This document shows positions 38,344-49,751 of a DNA stretch of 64,000 bases, one piece after another. Source of the stretch: Gemmatimonadota bacterium (lineage in GTDB: Bacteria; Gemmatimonadota; Gemmatimonadetes; Longimicrobiales; Gaopeijiaceae). The notes under the pieces were generated by a model, which saw only the letters and a program-made list of their open reading frames with translations, was not told where the DNA came from and did no database searches. The DNA is taken from NCBI GenBank assembly GCA_034521595.1, contig JAXHMG010000003.1, positions 832,001 through 896,000 on the forward strand, given 5' to 3'. Position 1 is the first letter of the stretch. Each line of letters opens with the position of its first letter. The position numbers were made by a program, and so were the translations under genes.

Positions 38344-38679
38344 ATGGCCACGAGTGACGCGATTCTCGAAGTCACCGACAACAACTTCGTTTCGGAGATC
38401 GAGCAGGGCGAGGGCCTCCATATGGTCGACTTCTGGGCCACGTGGTGTGGCCCGTGTCGTATGGTGGCGCCCATCGTCAGCGAGCTCGCCGGAGAGTATC
38501 AGGATAAAGGTTTGCGGGTCGGAAAGCTCGATGTCGACTCGAATCCCAGCACCACGGCGCGCTTCCGCGTGACCTCCATCCCGAGTGTTCTCTTCTTCAA
38601 GGGCGGGGAGCTCGTGGACCGCGTGGTCGGGGCCGTCCCGCGGCCGCAGCTCGAAGAGAAGATCAAGGAGCACTTGTAA
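38344..38679 (+). CDS. trxA: Thioredoxin
   Basis: DFWATWCGPC, SIP cis-Pro motif; AAGGAG RBS. Confidence 0.96.
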   Translation: MATSDAILEVTDNNFVSEIEQGEGLHMVDFWATWCGPCRMVAPIVSELAGEYQDKGLRVGKLDVDSNPSTTARFRVTSIPSVLFFKGGELVDRVVGAVPRPQLEEKIKEHL

Positions 38680-38709
38680 CGGCGCCAGGCCCTCGCCATG
38701 GCCGTGAAA

Positions 38710-38761
38710 GACGCGCGCCCGGGATGCCCGACATGGAGAGGCGTCCCGGGCGCGTCGTTTT
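38710..38761 (+). terminator. Intrinsic terminator after trxA
   Basis: GCGCCCGGGATGCC / GGCGTCCCGGGCGC stem followed by GTTTT. Confidence 0.7.
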
Positions 38762-38794
38762 CCGAGCGGGGCGGCGCCCGCTATCTTACCCGGT

Positions 38795-39661
38795 GTGTCC
38801 ACGCTCTACTTGGTCAGCACCCCGATCGGCAATCTCGGGGACTTCACGCCCCGGGCCGCCGAAACCCTCACGGCCGTTTCGCGCATTCTCGCCGAGGATA
38901 CCCGGCGCAGCCGCGTGCTGGCGGATCGTGCCGGATCGACGGCTCCTTTGGTTTCGCTCCACCAGCACAACGAGCGGGAGCGGATCGAGCGCATCCTCGA
39001 GTGGATGAGCCGTGGGGAAGATCTCGCCCTGGTTTCCGACGCCGGCACTCCCATCGTGTCCGATCCCGGAGGGCGGGTGGTCACGGCGGTGCTCGCCGCC
39101 GGCCACGACGTGGTGCCCATCCCCGGGCCGAGCGCCGTCTTGGCGGCGTTGGCGGCGTCCGGCTTGCCGGGGGAGCGCTTCACGTTCCTCGGGTTTCCGG
39201 ATCGGAAGGGGGCGGCGCGCCGCGACCTCGTTCGTAGGATCGCGCGCAGCACGGAAACGGTGGTGCTCTTCGAGTCCCCCGTCCGGGTACCCCGGCTTCT
39301 CGTCGACCTCCTCGAGGCGTGCGGCGCGGACCGGCGCGTTGCCGTGGCGCGCGAGCTGACCAAGGTCCACGAGACGATCTTGCGTGGAACCCTCCGGGAA
39401 GCGGTCGCCTACTATGAAGAGACACCGCCGAAGGGAGAGGTCACGTTGGTGGTCGAGGGTGTACCGGCCGAGCAGCCCGCGCCCCTGGATGAGGAGTGGG
39501 TGCGCGAGCAGGCACGTGAGCTCCTCGATGGCGGGATGCGGCCGTCGAGAGCGGCGCGCGAGTTGGCGCGCCGCTTCGAGGTGGGCCGTAACGACGCGTA
39601 CCGTATCGTGCACTCCGTGACGGATGCGCAAGCGCCGGGGGACGGTCCCGAACAGGAATGA
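38795..39661 (+). CDS. rsmI: 16S rRNA (cytidine1402-2'-O)-methyltransferase
   Basis: LYLVSTPIGNLGD, AEDTR, VSDAGTPIVSDPG, PGPSA, ARELTKVHE. Confidence 0.96.
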   Translation: MSTLYLVSTPIGNLGDFTPRAAETLTAVSRILAEDTRRSRVLADRAGSTAPLVSLHQHNERERIERILEWMSRGEDLALVSDAGTPIVSDPGGRVVTAVLAAGHDVVPIPGPSAVLAALAASGLPGERFTFLGFPDRKGAARRDLVRRIARSTETVVLFESPVRVPRLLVDLLEACGADRRVAVARELTKVHETILRGTLREAVAYYEETPPKGEVTLVVEGVPAEQPAPLDEEWVREQARELLDGGMRPSRAARELARRFEVGRNDAYRIVHSVTDAQAPGDGPEQE

Positions 39662-40692
39662 CGAGCTTAGCAGCCCGTGGCAGAAGTCTGGTGGCCCGGA
39701 CCCGTGCTGCGCCCGGGTGCCCCGGGAGCGGCACGGCCCGCGATCCTATGGCGGAGTCCCGAAGGCGTAGCCGTAGCTACGTCGAGGGGCTCCAACGACG
39801 GGGGGCACCCGCGCCCGGAGGGCGTGGGTCGGGCCGTGCCGCCCCGGGCACCGCCGCGCCAGCGGTGGTCCGAAGGGCACGAGGGGACCAACGCTATCGC
39901 GTCGGTGCCCGCGGCCGCATGCGGCGTTGGCTCCTTTCGCCGATGCTACGGCATCGCCTTCAAGAAGCCGCCTTGCCTGCGGCGCGCAAGACCCTCGTGC
40001 GCGGGCCACCAGACTTCTGCCACGGGCTGCTAGTGCTGGTGGCGGTGTTGGTCCTGGGAGCTCCGGGGCTGGGAGCCGCGCAGGTCGGTGACTCGCTGAC
40101 GATCGCTCGCCTCCAGTATGGAGGTGGAGGGGATTGGTACGCGAACCCGTCGTCGCTCCCCAATCTCCTGGCGGCCGTTCGTGAGCGGACCGGCATCGTC
40201 ACGGCCCGTCGTGAAGCCGACGTGGAGCCGCTCGATCCGTCGCTTTCGGATTTCCCCTACCTCTACATGACGGGCCACGGTGAGGTGCGGTTCACGCCCC
40301 AGGAACGCGCGGCCCTCCGCACGTACCTGACGTCCGGAGGGTTCTTGCACGCGGACGACAACTACGGGCTGGACGAGTCGTTCCGCCGCGAGGTCGCCGC
40401 GTTGTTCCCCGATGCCGAGCTCACCGAGATTCCGCCGGACCATCCGGTCTTCCGTGCCTATTACGAGTTCCCGGACGGCTTGCCCAAGATCCACGAGCAC
40501 GACGGAGCCCCGCCCCAGGCGCTCGGGATCTTTCACGGAGGCCGGCTGGTGGTCTTTTACTCGTTCGAGTCCGATCTGGGTGACGGGTGGGAGGACCCGG
40601 ACGTGCACGGCGATCCTGCTGAGGTGCGTGAGGAGGCCCTGCGCATGGGTGTGAACCTCTTCGTGTATGTTCTCGGCCAGGAGGCTTCGTGA
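39658..40692 (+). CDS. DUF4159 domain exported protein carrying an in-frame 121-codon insertion near its start
   Basis: RLQYGGGGDWYANPSSLPNL, PYLYMTGHG, GGFLHADDNYG, GLPKIHEHDG, DLGDGWED; ATG overlaps the rsmI stop (ATGA). Confidence 0.88.
   Translation: MTSLAARGRSLVARTRAAPGCPGSGTARDPMAESRRRSRSYVEGLQRRGAPAPGGRGSGRAAPGTAAPAVVRRARGDQRYRVGARGRMRRWLLSPMLRHRLQEAALPAARKTLVRGPPDFCHGLLVLVAVLVLGAPGLGAAQVGDSLTIARLQYGGGGDWYANPSSLPNLLAAVRERTGIVTARREADVEPLDPSLSDFPYLYMTGHGEVRFTPQERAALRTYLTSGGFLHADDNYGLDESFRREVAALFPDAELTEIPPDHPVFRAYYEFPDGLPKIHEHDGAPPQALGIFHGGRLVVFYSFESDLGDGWEDPDVHGDPAEVREEALRMGVNLFVYVLGQEAS
39750..39797 (+). repeat. 48-nt structured hairpin motif, copy 1
   Basis: GGCGGAGTCCCGAAGGCGTAGCCGTAGCTACGTCGAGGGGCTCCAACG; 35/48 identical to the reverse complement of 39925-39972. 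Confidence 0.85.
39925..39972 (-). repeat. 48-nt structured hairpin motif, copy 2 (inverted)
   Basis: Minus strand reads GGCGGCTTCTTGAAGGCGATGCCGTAGCATCGGCGAAAGGAGCCAACG; differences from copy 1 preserve pairing. Confidence 0.85.
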
Positions 40693-43600
40693 GCAGGCCG
40701 GCGGACGCGCTTAAGGCGCGGGTCGGAGCCGTGAGGCGGTACCTGTACCGCCGCTCGGTGCTCGCGGCGGGCATCTGGGTTGCTTCCGGCGTCCTGACGG
40801 TCTGGGCGGTCGCGTGGTTGTGGGCGGGTGATGGAGGATGGCGGCCGGGGAGCGTCGGCCCGTTGGTGTTGGATGTCGCGATCGTCCTGTGGCTCCTCGG
40901 TGGGGCGTACGCATTTCGACGTGTCGTCGACCGTTGGCTGCGAGAGGACCGCCTGGCCCACGCGATCGAGCGGGCGGCCTCGCTGCCCGCCGGAGAAGTG
41001 CGTGGCACTCTCGAGCTCGGCAGGGCGATGCCGGAAGGGGTTTCGCCGCGGTTGGCGGCGAGGGCCACCGAGCGGGCCGAGGAGGGACTCCGCAGCTTCG
41101 GGACCTCCGAGCTGTCCGGATCGTTGGGACGCGACGTGAACCTCTGGATCCGGCGCGGGTGGGGCGGGCTCTTTGGGGCCACCTTGGTGCTCGTCGCCCT
41201 CACGGCTCTCGCCCCCGCACGCTCGCTCCAGGCGTGGAGCGGGCTCGCGACGCCGTTGCGCGTCTTGTCGGGGCCGACGCTCCCGCCACTCCAGGTCGAG
41301 CCCGGCCACGCCGAAGTGATGCGCGGTGCAGACGTATCGATCCGGGTGCGAGCCGAAGGACGCCGGGAGGTCGAGCTCCGGTGGCAGGGCGTGGGCGACG
41401 TCGCGCATTCCGAGTCGGTCGAGGTCGATCGTGGGTGGGCCGACTACGAGTTGCGCGGCGTCGCCGTGCCGACGGAGTACCGCGTCCATGGCGATGCGGG
41501 GACGACTTCGGAGCGGTATGTCATCACGCCCGTGGATCCGCTCTTCGTGGGCGATTTGCGCATCGAGCTGGATTTTCCGTCGCATACCGGACGGGCCGCG
41601 GAGGAATACCGGGGCGCGGCACCGCCGCTCCAAATTCCCGAGGGCACACGCATCGCGTTCGACGGGCGGGCGAACCGTCCCCTCAGCACGGCGACATTGA
41701 CGGACTCCGTGGGTGTGGCGGAGGTGGAGCTCGCGATCGACTCAGCAGAGTTCGACGGAAGGTGGACGCCCGAGACGAGCGGCCGGTACACGTGGCTGTT
41801 CCGGGACAGTGGGGGCGAGGCGCCGGCGGACGTTCCGCCGCCGATCGAGCTGGTCGTCCAGGCCGACCAGGTCCCGTTCGTCGAGATCACATCTCCCGCC
41901 CGAGACACGGTGCTGTCGAGCGACCTGAGTCAACGCTTGGCCATCGAGGCCGGAGACGACCACGGGTTGGCCGAGCTGGAGTTGGTGGCGCACCGGGTGA
42001 CTGCGCTGGGAGAACACCGGGAGCCGGTCGTGCAACGTTTCGACCTGGGCGAGACCCGGTTCGCGACTGCGCGCCCCGTCCTCGACTTCTCGTCATGGGG
42101 CTTGATGCCGGGCGACGAGGTGCGTTACTCGGCGCGTGTGGCCGACAACGCCCCCGATGCCCAGTGGGCCGAGACCGGGGAACGGGTGCTCCGCATGCCT
42201 TCCGCGAGCGAGCTCCGCCGGGACGTGGAGCGGGCCTTCGGAGACGCGGCCGAGCGGCTTTCACAGCTCAGAGAAGCGGCGGAGGCCGAGGCGGAAGGGA
42301 ACCGTCAGGAAGCCCGGGAACGAACGCTGGGCTCAGGTGCTTCCCGAGCAACCGGCCAGCGACAGCGCAGTGGCGCCGATACGGATTTCGACGAGCGTGA
42401 AAGCCTGAGGCGGGCGGTGGAAGAGCAAGAGCGGATGACCGCGGCCGTCGATTCGCTCGGCGCCGACCTCGAGGCGATGGAGCGGCGGATGGAGGAGGTG
42501 GGGCAGGCCGATCCGGAGCTGCGTGGGCAGATGCGGGAGCTGCAGGACCTGTTGGACCAGGTCGCCGGCGAAGATCTGGAATCCCGCACGGAGCGTCTTT
42601 CCGAGGCCATCGAACAGGGAGACGTGCGAGGGGCGGAGCGCTCGCTTCAGGAGCTCTCGGAGGAGCAGGAGCGGTTCCGGGAGCGGTTGGAGGAGTCGCT
42701 CGAGCGGTTCCGGCGTGCCGCGGTCGAGCAGGATTTCAGCGCGAGTCGGAACGAAGCGGAGGACCTGGCCAGACAGGAGCGGGCTCTCGCGGACGCCATG
42801 AGGGAAGACGGCACTACCGAGCTCAGGGCCGAGCAACAGGAAGGGCTCGCGGAACGTGCCGAAGAGCTCGACGCGCGGCTGGACCGGCTGGAGGAGCGAC
42901 TGCGCGAGATCGGAGAAGAGGGCGCCGCCGAAGGGGTGCGGGAAGCGGGCGCTCGTGCCGAGCAGGCCAGAGCCGAGATGAGCGAGGTCGGCCGGAATGC
43001 GGACGAGGGGCGGGCTGAGGAGGCTTCCAGCCGGGCCGAGCGGGCCTCCGAGCGGTTGGACGAGGCGGGGCGCGAGCTGAGGCAGGCCCAACAGGACATG
43101 GCCATGGAGCAGTTGACACGGATGCGCAGGGCGCTCGAGCGAACCGCGGATGACGCGCTTTCGCTCGCTCGCCGTCAGACGGGGCTCCGCCTGGAGATGA
43201 GGGGGGCGACTCCGGACGAATTGCGCGGCATGCGCTCCGACGAGAGGACGCTCCTGCAGGGCATGGAGAACGTGGCCGACAACCTCCGGGTCGCCACCGA
43301 CGGTCAGGTGCCCGGGGGGCGCGAGATCTCGGAGCAGATGGGACGGATCATGGAGTCGTTCGAGCGCACGCTCGCGTCGATGGAGCGACCACGAAGCATG
43401 AACGGATCACCGGTGGCCGCGTCGGAACGGGTGGTCGGGGACCTCAACGAGCTCGCGCTCATGGCTCTACGGTTCGCGGAGCAGATGGGTCAGGCCGGTG
43501 AAGAGCAGGGTCGGCAGCAGGAGGGTGCGGAGCAGGAAAGGCAGCAAGCGATGCAGCAGGCGCTGGAAGAGCTCGCCCAACAGCAAGGCGACCTGGTGAA

Positions 43601-44096
43601 CCAGGCCGGCCAGATCATGCCCATGCAGCTGGGAGAGCAAGCGCTGTCCGAGCAGCTCCAAGAGATGTCCGACGGTCAGCAATCCGTTTCGGATCAGCTC
43701 GGTGAGCTCTCCGATCAGCCGGCTTCCGAGGGCGCGTTGGGTGACCTGGAGCAACTCGCCGGGGAGGCTCGGGAGGTGGCCGAATCACTGGCGGAAGGTC
43801 GGCTCGATCCGGAGACGGCGCAGAGGCAGGAACGCCTGTTCCACCGACTCCTCGATGCAGGTCGGTCACTGGAACGCGACGAGGTTTCGGAGCAGCGCGA
43901 GTCGGAAGCGCCGACCGGTTTCGAGCGCGGGACCGTGATGCCGCTCGAAGATGGGCAGCTCGGGGTCCTCGAGTTCGGGATGCCGAGCGCCGAGCAGCTC
44001 CGGGAGCTGCCTTCGGCGGTTCGCCGTATGATTCTCGATTATTTCGAGCGTCTGAATCGGGTGCCATCGGCTCCCGACGACGGGGGTGCGTCGTGA
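40689..44096 (+). CDS. DUF4175-like large membrane-anchored protein (TM helices, beta domains, long Q/E-rich coiled coil)
   Basis: About 3 N-terminal TMs, beta-rich region (AGDDHGL, PGDEVRY..RVADN), about 600 aa coiled coil, QERLFHRLLDAGRS...YFERL end. Confidence 0.75.
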   Translation: MSRPADALKARVGAVRRYLYRRSVLAAGIWVASGVLTVWAVAWLWAGDGGWRPGSVGPLVLDVAIVLWLLGGAYAFRRVVDRWLREDRLAHAIERAASLPAGEVRGTLELGRAMPEGVSPRLAARATERAEEGLRSFGTSELSGSLGRDVNLWIRRGWGGLFGATLVLVALTALAPARSLQAWSGLATPLRVLSGPTLPPLQVEPGHAEVMRGADVSIRVRAEGRREVELRWQGVGDVAHSESVEVDRGWADYELRGVAVPTEYRVHGDAGTTSERYVITPVDPLFVGDLRIELDFPSHTGRAAEEYRGAAPPLQIPEGTRIAFDGRANRPLSTATLTDSVGVAEVELAIDSAEFDGRWTPETSGRYTWLFRDSGGEAPADVPPPIELVVQADQVPFVEITSPARDTVLSSDLSQRLAIEAGDDHGLAELELVAHRVTALGEHREPVVQRFDLGETRFATARPVLDFSSWGLMPGDEVRYSARVADNAPDAQWAETGERVLRMPSASELRRDVERAFGDAAERLSQLREAAEAEAEGNRQEARERTLGSGASRATGQRQRSGADTDFDERESLRRAVEEQERMTAAVDSLGADLEAMERRMEEVGQADPELRGQMRELQDLLDQVAGEDLESRTERLSEAIEQGDVRGAERSLQELSEEQERFRERLEESLERFRRAAVEQDFSASRNEAEDLARQERALADAMREDGTTELRAEQQEGLAERAEELDARLDRLEERLREIGEEGAAEGVREAGARAEQARAEMSEVGRNADEGRAEEASSRAERASERLDEAGRELRQAQQDMAMEQLTRMRRALERTADDALSLARRQTGLRLEMRGATPDELRGMRSDERTLLQGMENVADNLRVATDGQVPGGREISEQMGRIMESFERTLASMERPRSMNGSPVAASERVVGDLNELALMALRFAEQMGQAGEEQGRQQEGAEQERQQAMQQALEELAQQQGDLVNQAGQIMPMQLGEQALSEQLQEMSDGQQSVSDQLGELSDQPASEGALGDLEQLAGEAREVAESLAEGRLDPETAQRQERLFHRLLDAGRSLERDEVSEQRESEAPTGFERGTVMPLEDGQLGVLEFGMPSAEQLRELPSAVRRMILDYFERLNRVPSAPDDGGAS

Positions 44097-45865
44097 GGGT
44101 GCGTCGGACCGTGGGATCGATCGCCGCCGGACTCGTGGTCGTGCTGTGCTTGGGTGCCGCGCCCTCCCCGGCGGGTGGACAGGCGAGCGGTGAAGGGGAG
44201 ACGAACCGCCTCGTGCGGGAGGCGGCGGTTCTGGAAGCGAACGGTGACCTCGTCGGAGCCGAATCTTTGCTCCGCCGCGCGCTCGATCGGGCGCCGGACG
44301 CCACCGGTGCCGTGTTCGCCCTCGAGCGGGTGCTCCGCGCTCAGGACGACTCGGAGGAGATAATCCCCGTTCTGGAGGAGTATCTCGGGCGCAACCCGTC
44401 ATCCGGCGAAGTTCGGGCGCTGAAGCTGCGCGTCCTGGTCGAGGTGGATTCCGTCGATGCGGTCAGGCGCGAGGCGGACGCATGGATCGACGAGGATCCT
44501 TCGTCCGCGACGTACCGTTCTTTGGCGGAACTGTACGAGAACGCCTTCGGGCCGGCCGAGGCGCTCGCTCTGCTCCGAAAGGGCCAGGACGAGGTCGAGG
44601 AGGGCGACGCCTTGGCGCTCGAGGTCGGTGACCTGGCGGCCCGCCTGGGTGACCGGGACGAGGCGATCCGGCAATGGACACGGGGGGTGGGCGACGACGG
44701 TGCTCGAGTGGCAGCGGTGGCGCGGCGCTTACGAGGCCTCCCCGACCCACGGGACGACGCCGTGCAGGCGGTGCTGAGCTCGCTGTCCGAATCGCCCATC
44801 TTTGCGCGCCGGCGTGCCGCTGCTTTGATGGCTCTCGAGCTCGGCATGGAAGCCGAGGCGCTGGCGCTCGGTCGCGAGGTGGCTGATGAGCTGGGGACAC
44901 GGGCGCGCAACCGCTTCCTCACCGAGGTGGCGGAACGGGCACGGGAACGGGCGCTCGGGGGCGTAGCGGTGTGGGCGTTCGGGGAGCTCGCTGCCGACGC
45001 GGATATACCGACGGAGCGTAGATCTTTCGACCAGCGCTTGGTGGAGGTGGCGTTGGCCACTGGGGACTCGACCGCGGCATTCGAGGCCCAGTCTCGCATC
45101 GCGCAGTCCCACCCGGAGGAGTCGCCCGAACGGCGGACGGCCGCGGCTCGGGCGCTTCGGTTGGGGATGTCGGTTCTGGACGCCGACGCACTACGCCGTG
45201 CATTCGAGGAGTTCGAGAAGGCCTACCCGACTGCGGCGGAGATGGACGGATTGGCCGCCGGAGTCGCCCGAAGCCTCCGGGCGCGAGGCGATGCGGAGGC
45301 GGCCCTGTCCGTGCTGGCGCCTGCCCGAGGCCCGGAGAGCAGGGTGGAGCGTGCCTACCTTCTCCTCGGAGAGGGTAGGACCGAGGAAGGGCGGACGGTC
45401 CTGTCGGAGGCCGTCGAAGGGCTTCCTCCCTCAGAAGCCACGGAGGTGATCCGCCTCATGGGGCTCCTCGGGCGGCTTCCGAGTCGGGCCGCCTCCGTGC
45501 TCGGGCAGGCGGCTGCCGAAGCACGCACGGGACGCATCGACGAAGCGGTCGGGCTCCTGGAGGAGGCGGCCGACGGTCTCGATGAGGACGGACGGGCCAC
45601 GCTCTTCGCCCATGGGGCCCGGATGGTCGAAGATGCGGGCTATCCGGACCGTGCTGCGACGGTGCGCGAACGGTTGATGGACGAACATCCTGATCATCCG
45701 GCGACGTCGGCCGCCGCGTTGGCGCTCGCCCGGTACTACGCGGGGCGGGAAGGCGGTGTGGACCGGGCGGTCACGCTCCTCGAGGAGCTCATCTCGTCCC
45801 GGCCCAACGGGGCCATCGTCCCGAACGCACGCGCCGAGCTCGACCGCATCCGGAGGGCGCCATGA
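44093..45865 (+). CDS. Exported tetratricopeptide-repeat protein
   Basis: Signal peptide, repeated Ala/Leu-rich helical pairs, C-terminal LEELISSRPNGAIVPNAR. Confidence 0.75.
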   Translation: MRVRRTVGSIAAGLVVVLCLGAAPSPAGGQASGEGETNRLVREAAVLEANGDLVGAESLLRRALDRAPDATGAVFALERVLRAQDDSEEIIPVLEEYLGRNPSSGEVRALKLRVLVEVDSVDAVRREADAWIDEDPSSATYRSLAELYENAFGPAEALALLRKGQDEVEEGDALALEVGDLAARLGDRDEAIRQWTRGVGDDGARVAAVARRLRGLPDPRDDAVQAVLSSLSESPIFARRRAAALMALELGMEAEALALGREVADELGTRARNRFLTEVAERARERALGGVAVWAFGELAADADIPTERRSFDQRLVEVALATGDSTAAFEAQSRIAQSHPEESPERRTAAARALRLGMSVLDADALRRAFEEFEKAYPTAAEMDGLAAGVARSLRARGDAEAALSVLAPARGPESRVERAYLLLGEGRTEEGRTVLSEAVEGLPPSEATEVIRLMGLLGRLPSRAASVLGQAAAEARTGRIDEAVGLLEEAADGLDEDGRATLFAHGARMVEDAGYPDRAATVRERLMDEHPDHPATSAAALALARYYAGREGGVDRAVTLLEELISSRPNGAIVPNARAELDRIRRAP

Positions 45866-47127
45866 CTACCCCGAACGTGCTCCGTGTAGTGCTCGTCCTG
45901 TTGTTCCTGGCCATGCCGGGAGCCGTGGCGGCCCAGTCGCTACTCGTGCCCATGGACCGAGAGCAACGTGATCACCTGAAAGCCTACGGCCTGACCCACT
46001 GGGCGCTCGAGCGGGAGCTGAGCGCGGAGTGGCTGCTAAACTACAGGAGCGGCTCGTTCCTGTTTCCGGACCACGAGGAGCTGCGCCGGGAAGCGGCGTT
46101 GCGGGGCGTGACCCTGGAGGAGGTCGACGTCGCGGCCGTGTCACGGATCCGGTCGACCATCGAATCGTCCAACATGGAGGCGATTCCCTTGGAGCGAGCG
46201 CCTCGAATCGCGGTGTACACCCCGCCGAACTCGTCTCCGTGGGACGACGCGGTGACGATGGCGCTCGAGTACGCGGACATCGAGTACGAGACGATCTGGG
46301 ATCCCGAGGTCCTCACCGAAGACCTTTCCCGCTACGAATGGATCCACCTCCATCACGAGGACTTCACCGGGCAGTACTCGAAGTTCTACCTGACGTATTC
46401 GGGCGCGCCCTGGCTACAGGACGAGGTGGCCCGCAACCAGGAGGTGGCCGGGGAGCACGGTTATCCGAACGTGCCGGCGCTCAAGAAGGCCGTCGCCGAG
46501 CGGATCCGAGCATACGTCGAGAACGGGGGGTTCCTGTTCGCGATGTGCTCCGCGACCGAGACCCTGGAGCTGGCGCTGGCCGCGGGGCCGGTGGACATCG
46601 CGGCCGCCTATGCCGACGGGACGCCGCCCGATCCGGATGCGTCGGCCAGAATGGACTGGGATCGGGCGATGGCCTTCACCGATGCGGAAGTGCACGTGGC
46701 TCCGACCGTCAACGCGTTCTCGGACATCGACGGCCACCAGGTGAACACGCCTTGGCGCGAAGCTCTCGGGGCATTCACGCTCTTCGACTTCTCCGCGAAG
46801 CTCGATCCGGTTCCGTCAATGCTGACGCAGAGCCACGAGTCGATCCTGCCGGATTTCTACGGCCTGACCACGTCGTTTCGCCAGGACCGGTTGAAACCGG
46901 GGGTGATCGTGCTCGCCGAAGAAGGACCGTGGGCCAAGTACGTGCACGGAAATCTCGGCGAGGGAACGTTCACGTACTTCGGTGGACACGACCCCGAGGA
47001 TCCCGAGCACCAGATCGGCGACGCGCACATCGATCTCTCGCTTCATCCGAACTCGCCGGGATATCGCTTGATCCTCAACAACGTGCTCTTCCCAGCGGCG
47101 AGGAAGCAGACTCTGAAGACACAGTGA
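45862..47127 (+). CDS. Conserved exported protein, possible class-I GATase-like fold (family often labelled 'asparagine synthetase B')
   Basis: Signal peptide AVAA-Q; LLVPMD..Q.DHLKAYG, WLLNYRSGSF, WIHLHHEDFTGQY, GGFLFAMCSATE, GGHDPED, GYRLILNNVLFPAA; no AsnB N-terminal Cys. Confidence 0.7.
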   Translation: MTTPNVLRVVLVLLFLAMPGAVAAQSLLVPMDREQRDHLKAYGLTHWALERELSAEWLLNYRSGSFLFPDHEELRREAALRGVTLEEVDVAAVSRIRSTIESSNMEAIPLERAPRIAVYTPPNSSPWDDAVTMALEYADIEYETIWDPEVLTEDLSRYEWIHLHHEDFTGQYSKFYLTYSGAPWLQDEVARNQEVAGEHGYPNVPALKKAVAERIRAYVENGGFLFAMCSATETLELALAAGPVDIAAAYADGTPPDPDASARMDWDRAMAFTDAEVHVAPTVNAFSDIDGHQVNTPWREALGAFTLFDFSAKLDPVPSMLTQSHESILPDFYGLTTSFRQDRLKPGVIVLAEEGPWAKYVHGNLGEGTFTYFGGHDPEDPEHQIGDAHIDLSLHPNSPGYRLILNNVLFPAARKQTLKTQ

Positions 47128-49751
47128 GCGAGCGCGCCGACACCTTCCTGGTGGGGCTCGACGGACTCGAAGACCCCGAGCCGGACGCCGCACAGGAGAA
47201 GGCATCGCCGCCCTCGAAGCGCCTCACGCTCTCGGCCGAGGCGATCGCGCGGATCAGGGACGAGATCGAGCGTGCGGGGGGGCGGGAGGTGTGCTTCCTC
47301 GCGACGGTCGACGAGCACCGGGCCGTCCACGATCCTCGTGCCGTCTCCCGCGGGAATCACGAGGCGGTGCTGGTGGCTGCCCGCGACGCGCCGGAGGGAG
47401 GTCTGATGGTGCACAACCATCCTTCGGGCGTGCTCGAGCCCTCCGAGGCGGACATGCGGGTCGCCGGACGCCTGTACGAGGAAGGATTGGGGACGGCCAT
47501 CGTCGATAACCGGGCGGAAGGCCTCTACGTGGTGGTCGAGCCGCCCACGCCCCGGGTCGTGCGGCCGCTGAGCGTCGAGAAAGTACAGGAGACGCTCGGT
47601 CCGCACGGGCCTCTCGCGGAGGGGATGGGGGGCTACGAAGACCGCCCCGGCCAGCGGAGCATGGCCGCTCTCGTGACGGAATCCTACAACGACGGGGGCG
47701 TCACCCTGGTGGAAGCCGGGACCGGCACGGGCAAGTCGCTGGCGTACCTGGTGCCCGCGGCCAAGTGGGCCCTGCAGAACGGAGAGCGGACGATCCTCTC
47801 CACGAACACCATCAACCTCCAGGAACAGCTCGTCGGGAAGGATCTTCCCCTGGTGGAGAAGCTCGTCGGAGACGTCTCCTGGGCGCTCGTGAAGGGTCGG
47901 GGCAACTACGTTTCGATCCGAAGGGCGCTGCTGGCCGCCGACGGACAGGAGAGCCTGTTCGAGGACGATCGCTCGAGCGAGATGAAGGCGCTGTTGGAGT
48001 GGATGGAGACGAGCGACGACGGATCCCTTTCCGATCTGGACTTCGTGCCGTCCGACGATGTGTGGGAGGAGGTGCGCAGTGATCCGGACATGTGCCTGCG
48101 GGCGCGCTGTCCCCACTTCCAGGAGTGCTTCTACCAGCGTTCCCGGAGACGGGCGGCTTCGGCTCAGCTCCTCGTCGTCAACCACCACCTCCTCTTCACC
48201 GACCTCGCGGTGCGGCGGGCGACGGGGAACTACACGCAGGCCGCCGTCCTCCCCTCGTACAAGCGGGTGGTGCTCGACGAGGCACACAACGTCGAGGACT
48301 CGGCGACGTCGCATCTCGGCGTCGAGCTGACCCGACGTGGCATGTACCGTACCCTGTCCCGCCTCGATCGGCGGGGGCGGGGGATCCTGACCGCGGTCCA
48401 CGAGGCCCTCACGGGCGGAACCGACGGCGGCGAGCTCCGGGAGCGGCTGGAGAACCGGGTGCGCCCCTCGGTGGCGACGGCGCGATCGGCCCTCGAAGGA
48501 CTCCTCGAGCGCCTGGAGGGCCTCGTCACCGATGATGCCGGCGTGGTTCGTCTCGGTCCTCGGGGCATCGGAGAGCCCGCGGAAGACGCGGAAGTCGACG
48601 AGCCACTCCGTGCGGCCCTTCGCGCGCTCACCACGCTTCAGCGGGAGGTGGCCGAGCTCCGTGCCCGCCTCGAGCTACGGGACGATCTCTCGGAACGGCT
48701 CGAGGGCCGGCTGCTCGATCTGCGGTCCGTGGAGCGCCGGATCGCGGCCGCCGTGCACGGGCTCCGGCTCATCCTCGTGCCGAACGACGATTCCGCGCGG
48801 TACGTGCGTTGGTTGGAGTCGCGCGGCCGCGGCCGAAGGCGGAATCTGGCCCTCGCTGCGGCGCCGGTCGAGCTCGGTGCCTTGCTCCGCGAGTCGCTCT
48901 TCACACGCGCCGAGACGACGGTTCTGACCAGCGCGAGCCTGACGACTCGGGGGACCTTCGACTTCATGAAGGCGAGGCTCGGGCTCGAGGTGCGCCCGAC
49001 GTCGGACGAGGCGAACGAGGTCGGGACCGTACGCGAGCGGATGATCGCTTCGCCGTTCGACTTCGAGCGGCACACGCTCCTGGTGGTGCCGACGGGCCAG
49101 GGGGCCCCGGATGAGCACGGAAACGCGTGGAACGAGCGCACTCCGGACGATCCGACGGCGCTGCGCGTGGGAGAGCTGGCCGCCATTACCGACGGCGGCC
49201 TCTTCGTGCTCTTCACCTCCCACGCCGCGTTGCGTCGGACGTCGGATGCGCTCCGGCGGGGAGGCATCGAGGCGCGCTGGCCCCTTTTCGTCCAGGGCGA
49301 AGGTCAGCGTCACGACCTCGTCGACCGGTTCGTGGCGGCCGGCCGCGGGATCCTCCTCGGCACGAACTCCTTCTGGGAAGGTGTGGACGTGCCCGGCGAG
49401 CCCTTGCGGGGGCTGGTCATCCACAAGCTGCCGTTCCGGGTGCCGACCGAGCCCATCACCGCCGCCCGTATGGAGGCCGTCGAGGCCGCTGGAGGGGACT
49501 CGTTTCGGGACTTCATGCTGCCGCATGCGGCGCTGCGGCTCAAGCAGGGCTTCGGCCGGCTCGTGCGCGGTCACGAGGACAAGGGGGTCGTCATCGTGTT
49601 GGACGACCGACTCGTCACCCGCCGCTACGGCGGGTATCTCCGCTCCTCCCTGCCGCCCGCCCCACTCGTGAAGGGTGCGTGGCACGACGTGGAACGCCGC
49701 ATCGGGGCGTTCTACGGCACTTCACTTGGTCGAGGAAGGGTCGCGCCCTAA
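47124..49751 (+). CDS. DinG/YoaA family SF2 helicase with N-terminal JAB/MPN (RadC-like) domain
   Basis: E..HNHPSG.LEPSEAD; Q motif EDRPGQ, AGTGTGKS, DEAH, LTSAS, FWEGVDVPG, KLPF, QGFGRLVR; GTG overlaps the upstream stop. Confidence 0.9.
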   Translation: MSERADTFLVGLDGLEDPEPDAAQEKASPPSKRLTLSAEAIARIRDEIERAGGREVCFLATVDEHRAVHDPRAVSRGNHEAVLVAARDAPEGGLMVHNHPSGVLEPSEADMRVAGRLYEEGLGTAIVDNRAEGLYVVVEPPTPRVVRPLSVEKVQETLGPHGPLAEGMGGYEDRPGQRSMAALVTESYNDGGVTLVEAGTGTGKSLAYLVPAAKWALQNGERTILSTNTINLQEQLVGKDLPLVEKLVGDVSWALVKGRGNYVSIRRALLAADGQESLFEDDRSSEMKALLEWMETSDDGSLSDLDFVPSDDVWEEVRSDPDMCLRARCPHFQECFYQRSRRRAASAQLLVVNHHLLFTDLAVRRATGNYTQAAVLPSYKRVVLDEAHNVEDSATSHLGVELTRRGMYRTLSRLDRRGRGILTAVHEALTGGTDGGELRERLENRVRPSVATARSALEGLLERLEGLVTDDAGVVRLGPRGIGEPAEDAEVDEPLRAALRALTTLQREVAELRARLELRDDLSERLEGRLLDLRSVERRIAAAVHGLRLILVPNDDSARYVRWLESRGRGRRRNLALAAAPVELGALLRESLFTRAETTVLTSASLTTRGTFDFMKARLGLEVRPTSDEANEVGTVRERMIASPFDFERHTLLVVPTGQGAPDEHGNAWNERTPDDPTALRVGELAAITDGGLFVLFTSHAALRRTSDALRRGGIEARWPLFVQGEGQRHDLVDRFVAAGRGILLGTNSFWEGVDVPGEPLRGLVIHKLPFRVPTEPITAARMEAVEAAGGDSFRDFMLPHAALRLKQGFGRLVRGHEDKGVVIVLDDRLVTRRYGGYLRSSLPPAPLVKGAWHDVERRIGAFYGTSLGRGRVAP

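Follow-up and report, generated by a model that had tools for sequence, protein, structure and literature searches.

The stretch of DNA that we analysed, here called the window, is 64,000 nucleotides long and contains rsmI followed by a gene for a DUF4159 protein (ORF 39658-40692, 344 aa, open, with the DUF4159 domain at residues 148-339). The rsmI stop codon (TGA, 39659-39661) overlaps the ATG of the DUF4159 gene in an ATGA arrangement, and further start/stop overlaps chain this gene to four others, which encode in order a 1135-aa protein, a TPR protein, a 421-aa protein and a DinG/YoaA-like helicase. No sigma-70-like promoter was found in 38600-40800. DUF4159 is uncharacterised, with one solved relative (Hoch_4089, 4I66), and the genome encodes four distant paralogues of the protein at 31-35% identity. 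Within the start of the DUF4159 gene lies a MITE. The features of the locus are listed below by window position.

38795-39661, plus strand: rsmI, 16S rRNA C1402 2'-O-methyltransferase (TIGR00096, 224 bits, cut-off 168)
39658-39669, plus strand: native start of the DUF4159 gene, codons 1-4 (M-T-S-L), the Leu TTA codon containing the target TA
39668-39669, no strand: left target copy TA (TTAG, 39667-39670, if the target is read as 4 bp)
39670-40030, plus strand: MITE, 361 bp, one long branched hairpin
39670-39698, plus strand: left terminal inverted repeat (TIR), 29 bp
39699-39722, minus strand: nested hairpin cassette 1, GGGCACC...GGTC type, +21 bp relative to the 274-bp core form (by alignment)
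39803-39830, plus strand: nested hairpin cassette 2, +24 bp (by alignment)
39846-39870, plus strand: nested hairpin cassette 3, +21 bp (by alignment)
39886-39910, minus strand: nested hairpin cassette 4, +21 bp (by alignment)
39919-39945, plus strand: element-borne in-frame ATGs (39919 and 39943), base-paired and without a Shine-Dalgarno-like word
40002-40030, minus strand: right TIR, sharing its outer 18 bases with an autonomous IS1182-like element (L042) at that element's right end
40027-40080, plus strand: signal-peptide hydrophobic core and cleavage region, both intact as judged from hydropathy and orthologues
40031-40032, no strand: right target copy TA (CTAG, 40030-40033, if the target is read as 4 bp)
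40081-40692, plus strand: mature DUF4159 protein, its stop codon overlapping the GTG of the next gene (40689)
40689-49751, plus strand: downstream chain of four genes

The initial annotation described perfect 29-bp inverted repeats flanked by TA, and comparison of the arms (39668-39698 and 40002-40032) confirmed this, the repeats and the TA on each side together giving 31 nt of 100% complementarity. Its count of 363 bp for the element plus one TA, equal to 121 codons free of stops in the DUF4159 frame, was likewise correct on the ORF; these codons are added after codon 4. The boundary may lie one base further in, giving a 28-bp TIR and a YTAR target, because the autonomous relatives described below duplicate 4 bp; 363 bp are added either way. 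As RNA the element folds with a free energy of -267.6 kcal/mol (z = -13.5), and 0/100 shuffled sequences folded as well. An Rfam search of the element gave only two chance-level matches, neither credible, and a Pfam search with residues 1-141 of the DUF4159 ORF gave no match, that is, no transposase domain in the element. The internal module at 39724-39804 matches genomes of other genera (G007, G008, G009 and G012), all without the TIR pattern, behind which probably stand relatives of the element with other ends. On the minus strand, 39919-39940 holds a Shine-Dalgarno-like word followed by an ATG and a seven-codon frame pointing inward from the right end; this may be a remnant of the start of the parent transposase.

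The hydrophobic core of the signal peptide takes its first two Leu residues from the end of the element and the TA, and its remainder is native; the most hydrophobic 15-mer of the ORF (mean KD 2.72) begins at residue 124. Signal-peptide cleavage is predicted before the Gln at 40081, the site being placed from orthologues and the core from hydropathy. Excising the element in silico had been reported to leave a compact signal peptide with its ATG on the rsmI stop, which fits the short signal peptides of the orthologues. All 14 related loci (six from the same genus, seven from the same family and one from the same order) have an empty site, with the DUF4159 gene beginning close after rsmI and encoding a short signal peptide, and the start/stop overlap is kept in 6/6 same-genus orthologues. 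Four of these six place residue 4 of the mature query 62 nt after the rsmI stop, compared with 65 nt here once 363 are subtracted; in the other two the match begins one residue earlier, with gaps of 59 and 74 nt. These 14 loci are too diverged for the exact target bases to be read. With TA on both sides of the element and an empty site in every relative, the proposal that it entered at codon 4 and preserved both the frame and the ATGA overlap was borne out, the relatives presenting an uninterrupted locus rather than a 121-residue extension shared by all orthologues. The mature domain showed no decay: only 2 of 124 otherwise invariant columns were changed, pN/pS was 0.17-0.25, and four of five checked strain differences were silent. 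The insertion is young, however, so the lack of decay says little.

Short-read contigs bridged both junctions separately, the left by X2 (39590-39693, 0 differences) and the right by X1 (40004-41200); the runs behind them represent one sample, possibly the source of the window itself. No RNA run was listed among those carrying the sequence, and the runs with small shares (X3-X6) were excluded from any inference on habitat. No contig skipping the element was found in the four runs, a result that concerns contigs only and has no bearing on an empty allele. Misplacement of a repeat into the gene during assembly could account for the lack of any single contig across the whole element in these runs, but it would not produce the two bridged junctions, nor make the duplicated target and the signal peptide restored by excision fit as exactly as they do, and we consider an artefact of this kind scarcely credible.

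The host genome (G000; 3.49 Mb in three contigs, 93% complete) was searched for further copies by their TIRs. This gave 21 TIR pairs, three of which had four mismatches at both ends and were dropped as chance pairs. The remaining 18 paired copies, 258-383 bp long and at unrelated sites, support the earlier description of a non-autonomous, multi-copy element; their TIRs measure 25-31 bp in 16/18 cases. They share a 274-bp core, fall into two subfamilies and are lengthened by nested 18-24-nt cassettes, of which the window copy has four. Five of the six cassette slots, in the region corresponding to 39699-39910, alter length by a multiple of three and so preserve the frame. Ten single TIR-like ends (C3:495572, 645071, 914758, 1002830, 2070898, 2141047 and 2943020; C2:146692, 195270 and 238003) stand without a partner between genes or at stop codons, and are possible relics of excision or deletion. 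Within the genus, MITE ends occurred in 5/7 genomes (G000-G006); the TIR pattern was present in 28 of 201 family genomes and abundant in a few, and the public records sharing the TIR end were from Gemmatimonadota.

To place the copies relative to genes we used gene starts and signal peptides called by our own hexamer and hydropathy scripts (3055 genes), with empty sites reconstructed in silico. Ten of the 18 copies are intergenic, four lie on stop codons, two are out of frame near 3' ends, with 5 and 38 residues lost, and two are in frame. None lies deep in a gene, compared with 18.7% of 1819 YTAR sites (P = 0.024). The copy at G000:C3:187926-188183 turns a Tyr codon into a stop, shortening by 38 residues a gene product that, from the look of its sequence, is presumably a CAAX-type protease. 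Length in phase and an open frame are combined in 7/18 copies, always in the same orientation and frame; the window element is open only in the xTA frame of its present orientation. Both in-gene, in-frame copies precede the hydrophobic core of a signal peptide. The second (G000:C3:2566487-2567146, C3:2566517) adds 92 codons to a lipoprotein signal peptide, at codon 10, and its orthologues lack the insert in 5/5 genus genomes; in G004 the empty signal peptide is colinear, and in the other four it is short. The start of this gene overlaps an upstream paralogous lipoprotein gene, and the gene is the last of its run, with a convergent gene following. Sites before a core make up 5-8% of frame-compatible coding targets (21/421 and 28/356 in two counts). 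The preference of in-frame copies for signal peptides is suggestive, not strong: the enrichment was noticed post hoc with n = 2 and a crude classification, and only the second copy constitutes a test, at 5-8%. Among 63 ends in two other genomes, 12 were on stop codons, none was in frame in an N-terminus and the frames were closed; 21 further loci (11 from metagenomes, found with a shorter pattern, and 10 from genomes) also gave no in-frame N-terminal insertion and closed frames. The long right-end pattern had 0 matches in metagenomes. One apparent in-frame entry (L068, in G002) was rejected, as it had no match among the proteins of this genome and looks like an antisense frame.

An autonomous partner was found outside the genus. 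A 1.5-kb element in G072 has the same ends and encodes, in a single ORF, a DUF772 + DDE transposase (PF05598, 72 bits; PF01609 and PF13751 above cut-off). Autonomous relatives of 1.48-1.55 kb with CAGCC-type ends, some flanked by CTAG, were present in 19/201 family genomes, and one of them (L042) shares 18/18 terminal bases with the MITE. The partner scored 191, 198 and 200 bits on NF033551 (IS1182), the best of eight families. The score is under the cut-off of 270, and we therefore file the partner as IS1182-like only; it is a divergent IS1182-like group. Since the MITE and these elements share both ends and target, the IS1182-like transposase would be expected to mobilise the MITE in trans. 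The initial annotation had guessed at an IS5/IS1182-like or IS630-like partner, and it is the IS1182-like part of this guess that stands, on shared ends and the DUF772 + DDE domains. The IS630 DDE_3 profile had 0 matches in the 93% complete host genome. Two IS427-type IS5 elements, each with two overlapping ORFs, reside at G000:C3:12289 and C2:126961; they were rejected as partners for want of these ends, and the TIR of the one whose ends are clear is a different one. No DUF772 transposase was found in 7/7 genus genomes, the host's own included, and a search of the host genome for the partner protein also gave no match; the MITEs of the genus may be orphans, or the partner may be unassembled. 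Many autonomous copies (L041-L048, L059, L061-L064) encode a transposase without a stop codon of its own, the frame ending on the TAG at the target junction.

The flanks of the two kinds of element were compared. Autonomous elements had identical 4-bp flanks in 24/24 cases, a count from which one false pair in G000 was dropped and which includes two at CTAA/TTAG. Identical 4-bp flanks were present in 13/34 MITE copies, and 15 copies read TTAG...CTAG like the window copy. In 22 instances a TIR variant on one arm of a copy was mirrored on the other, and five changes affected one arm only. We infer a 4-bp duplication whose inner base was later made symmetric. The combination of identical autonomous flanks, mirrored TIR variants and a TTAG...CTAG reading that recurs among MITE copies inserted at mixed targets suggests hairpin-templated, GC-biased homogenisation reaching into the target duplication. 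Alternatively, the MITE may make a true TA duplication.

An open frame running through a mobile element invites comparison with Rickettsia palindromic elements (RPEs), and the possibility that this element carries a selected frame or peptide, making the fusion adaptive or regulatory, draws on the seven copies with the same frame open and in phase, which span two subfamilies, and on the cassette slots that vary by multiples of three. However, the peptide encoded by the 121-codon insert, which has 26 Arg and no hydrophobic segment, differs between the two subfamilies, and the hexamer score of the insert is -0.13 (non-coding-like) versus +0.44 for the mature domain. A protein search with insert residues 4-126 gave no match among 7535 candidates of 189-602 aa, and an open frame is unremarkable by itself, as 16.5% of 20,000 mononucleotide shuffles also had this frame free of stops. 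Among copies from seven related genomes the frame was closed or out of phase in 16/16, and this result largely refutes the idea of a selected frame, to which we give very little credence. The open frame is in all likelihood not selected. The full analogy to RPEs drawn by the initial annotation accordingly failed, as only 2/18 copies are in frame in genes.

The same annotation had offered, as one outcome, that translation restarts at an element-supplied ATG (MRRWLL...). Restart at 39919 or 39943 would yield a signal peptide of 46-54 residues with a new basic n-region. Besides the presence of the in-frame ATGs themselves, this reading is favoured by the origin of both in-gene copies in the subfamily with the ATG-bearing segment, although 7/18 copies have the same right half and two of two is hence unremarkable. 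The energy required to open each start was estimated. For the native start the cost is 6.1 kcal/mol as long as the 3' arm is untranscribed and 16.7 once the full hairpin has formed, the empty allele requiring 8.8; the element starts cost 15.8-33.2 kcal/mol. At 25.1 kcal/mol the ATG at 39919 exceeds all 40 control genes (maximum 22.6), but the ATG at 39943, at 15.8, falls among the values of real genes, which have a median of 10.9 and a 90th percentile of 18.1. GGAG, GAGG or AGGA at -16 to -5 precedes 646 of 1591 ATG genes (41%; background 12.7%), and 5/5 tested element starts lack such a word. With the native start intact and coupled, restart is also unneeded. We consider it unlikely, and would be surprised to find either ATG in use.

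We favour a reading, with a probability of roughly 0.58 judged from sequence, in which this is a young copy of an IS1182-like-derived MITE that is tolerated rather than selected, as the coupled start, the downstream coupling and the export signal would all survive. The MITE family would derive from, and be moved in trans by, an IS1182-like transposase targeting YTAR, most copies persisting in intergenic DNA or on stop codons. The window copy interrupts the DUF4159 signal peptide at its fourth codon, Leu TTA, and does so in the sole orientation and frame that this form of the element leaves open. Ribosomes would reach the DUF4159 start by termination-reinitiation from rsmI and then read through the insert; ribosome loading on the hairpin would be unneeded because the start codon overlaps the rsmI stop, and coupling to the four downstream genes would be kept because the frame runs to the native stop. 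Because it precedes the hydrophobic core, the insert would become a long, Arg-rich cytoplasmic n-region. Positive-inside topology and the recognition of internal hydrophobic signals are established, and the processing of internalized signal sequences was reportedly treated by Hayashi et al. in 1985. The protein would either be cleaved at the native site, the insert being lost with the signal peptide, or stay anchored in the membrane with DUF4159 outside. The hairpin probably lowers expression. In favour of this reading stands the low cost of opening the native start while the 3' arm is still missing, below that of the empty allele; the higher cost in the complete hairpin counts against it.

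The main competing explanation is that the cell is left with little or no DUF4159 protein, through stalling at the hairpin, cutting of the 29-bp stem by RNase III, or an n-region of 125 residues that prevents export. In this view the gene would be dispensable, and the insertion would be kept because its open frame spares the coupled downstream genes from polarity, or simply because it is recent. The stability of the hairpin fits this explanation, and part of the literature on symmetric-ended Neisseria CREE describes these as RNase III substrates in mRNA (PMC2649163). The four paralogues fit dispensability, the copy that removes 38 aa from the CAAX-protease-like gene is still carried, and the downstream genes, overlap-chained up to the helicase, would be exposed to polarity. 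Yet loss of the protein leaves unexplained why both in-frame copies precede a hydrophobic core, polarity is irrelevant for the second copy, whose gene is last of its run, and decay is absent from the mature domain, an argument of little weight for so young an insertion. We regard loss or strong reduction of the protein as a somewhat doubtful explanation that deserves to be taken seriously.

Tolerance of the insertion, our preferred reading, leads to a more general and tentative proposal, that signal-peptide n-regions are safe harbours for selfish DNA, in which a 92-121-residue peptide would be cut off by signal peptidase and the mature protein left unchanged. Signal peptidase I for the DUF4159 protein and signal peptidase II for the lipoprotein may remove the inserts. 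Where a gene encodes a hydrophobic N-terminus, Leu CTA/TTA codons number 3.5 per 1000 over codons 1-30, versus 1.7-1.8 per 1000 deeper in genes, and signal peptides would be exposed to a YTAR-targeting MITE, which enters such codons where they are about twofold denser. If true, the element would enjoy an intein-like invisibility borrowed from the secretion pathway. Our open-access literature searches did not find this idea stated. The two loci offer a clean natural experiment, with two exported proteins, one per signal peptidase, carrying 92- and 121-residue Arg-rich inserts, and empty alleles in relatives. If export works, they would reveal the length of additional N-terminal sequence that bacterial secretion can accommodate, and mobile DNA would have a route into genes without altering the mature protein. 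The work also connects an undescribed Gemmatimonadota MITE family with an IS1182-like partner, and annotators should be aware that predicted starts are shifted by copies of this kind.

In-frame MITE fusion as a phenomenon is already in print. Occasional in-frame fusions are described for prokaryotic MITEs and repeats in the parts of two papers that we draw on (PMC10969869, PMC3184786), and the relevant part of the latter reviews fusions at 5' ends, 3' ends and internally. Open-access searches found no paper on this MITE family in Gemmatimonadota or on signal peptides as tolerant sites, and the part of PMC3049150 drawn upon contributed nothing about signal peptides. Like Correia/CREE, ERIC/RU-1 and RUP, the element is short, non-coding, TIR-bounded, TA-flanked, hairpin-forming and mostly intergenic; unlike these, it has an IS1182-like partner with a 4-bp YTAR target, is very GC-rich and carries nested 18-24-nt cassettes. 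With RPEs it shares its palindromic nature and its presence in frame within protein genes. The section cited (PMC10969869) describes a conserved peptide for RPEs and places nearly half of them in ORFs, whereas here 2/18 copies are in ORFs, both in signal peptides, the peptide is not conserved, and TIR, target duplication and partner transposase are identifiable. Yersinia RU-2 (YPAL) in YPO1552 itself supplies signal-peptide residues 1-30, whereas the element here splits a pre-existing signal peptide, leaves the core intact and has an empty site in orthologues. Finally, the autonomous relatives resemble the IS1182 family in their length, single ORF, DUF772 + DDE domains and 4-bp direct repeat. 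A description of ISPse1 (IS1182) gives 1653 bp, a 16-bp IR and a 4-bp DR in the portion consulted (PMC3281130), and the family is called heterogeneous in an excerpt of another source (PMC5678879). The partner described here differs from that family in its sub-cut-off score on NF033551, and the MITE shares only the outer 16-18 bases.
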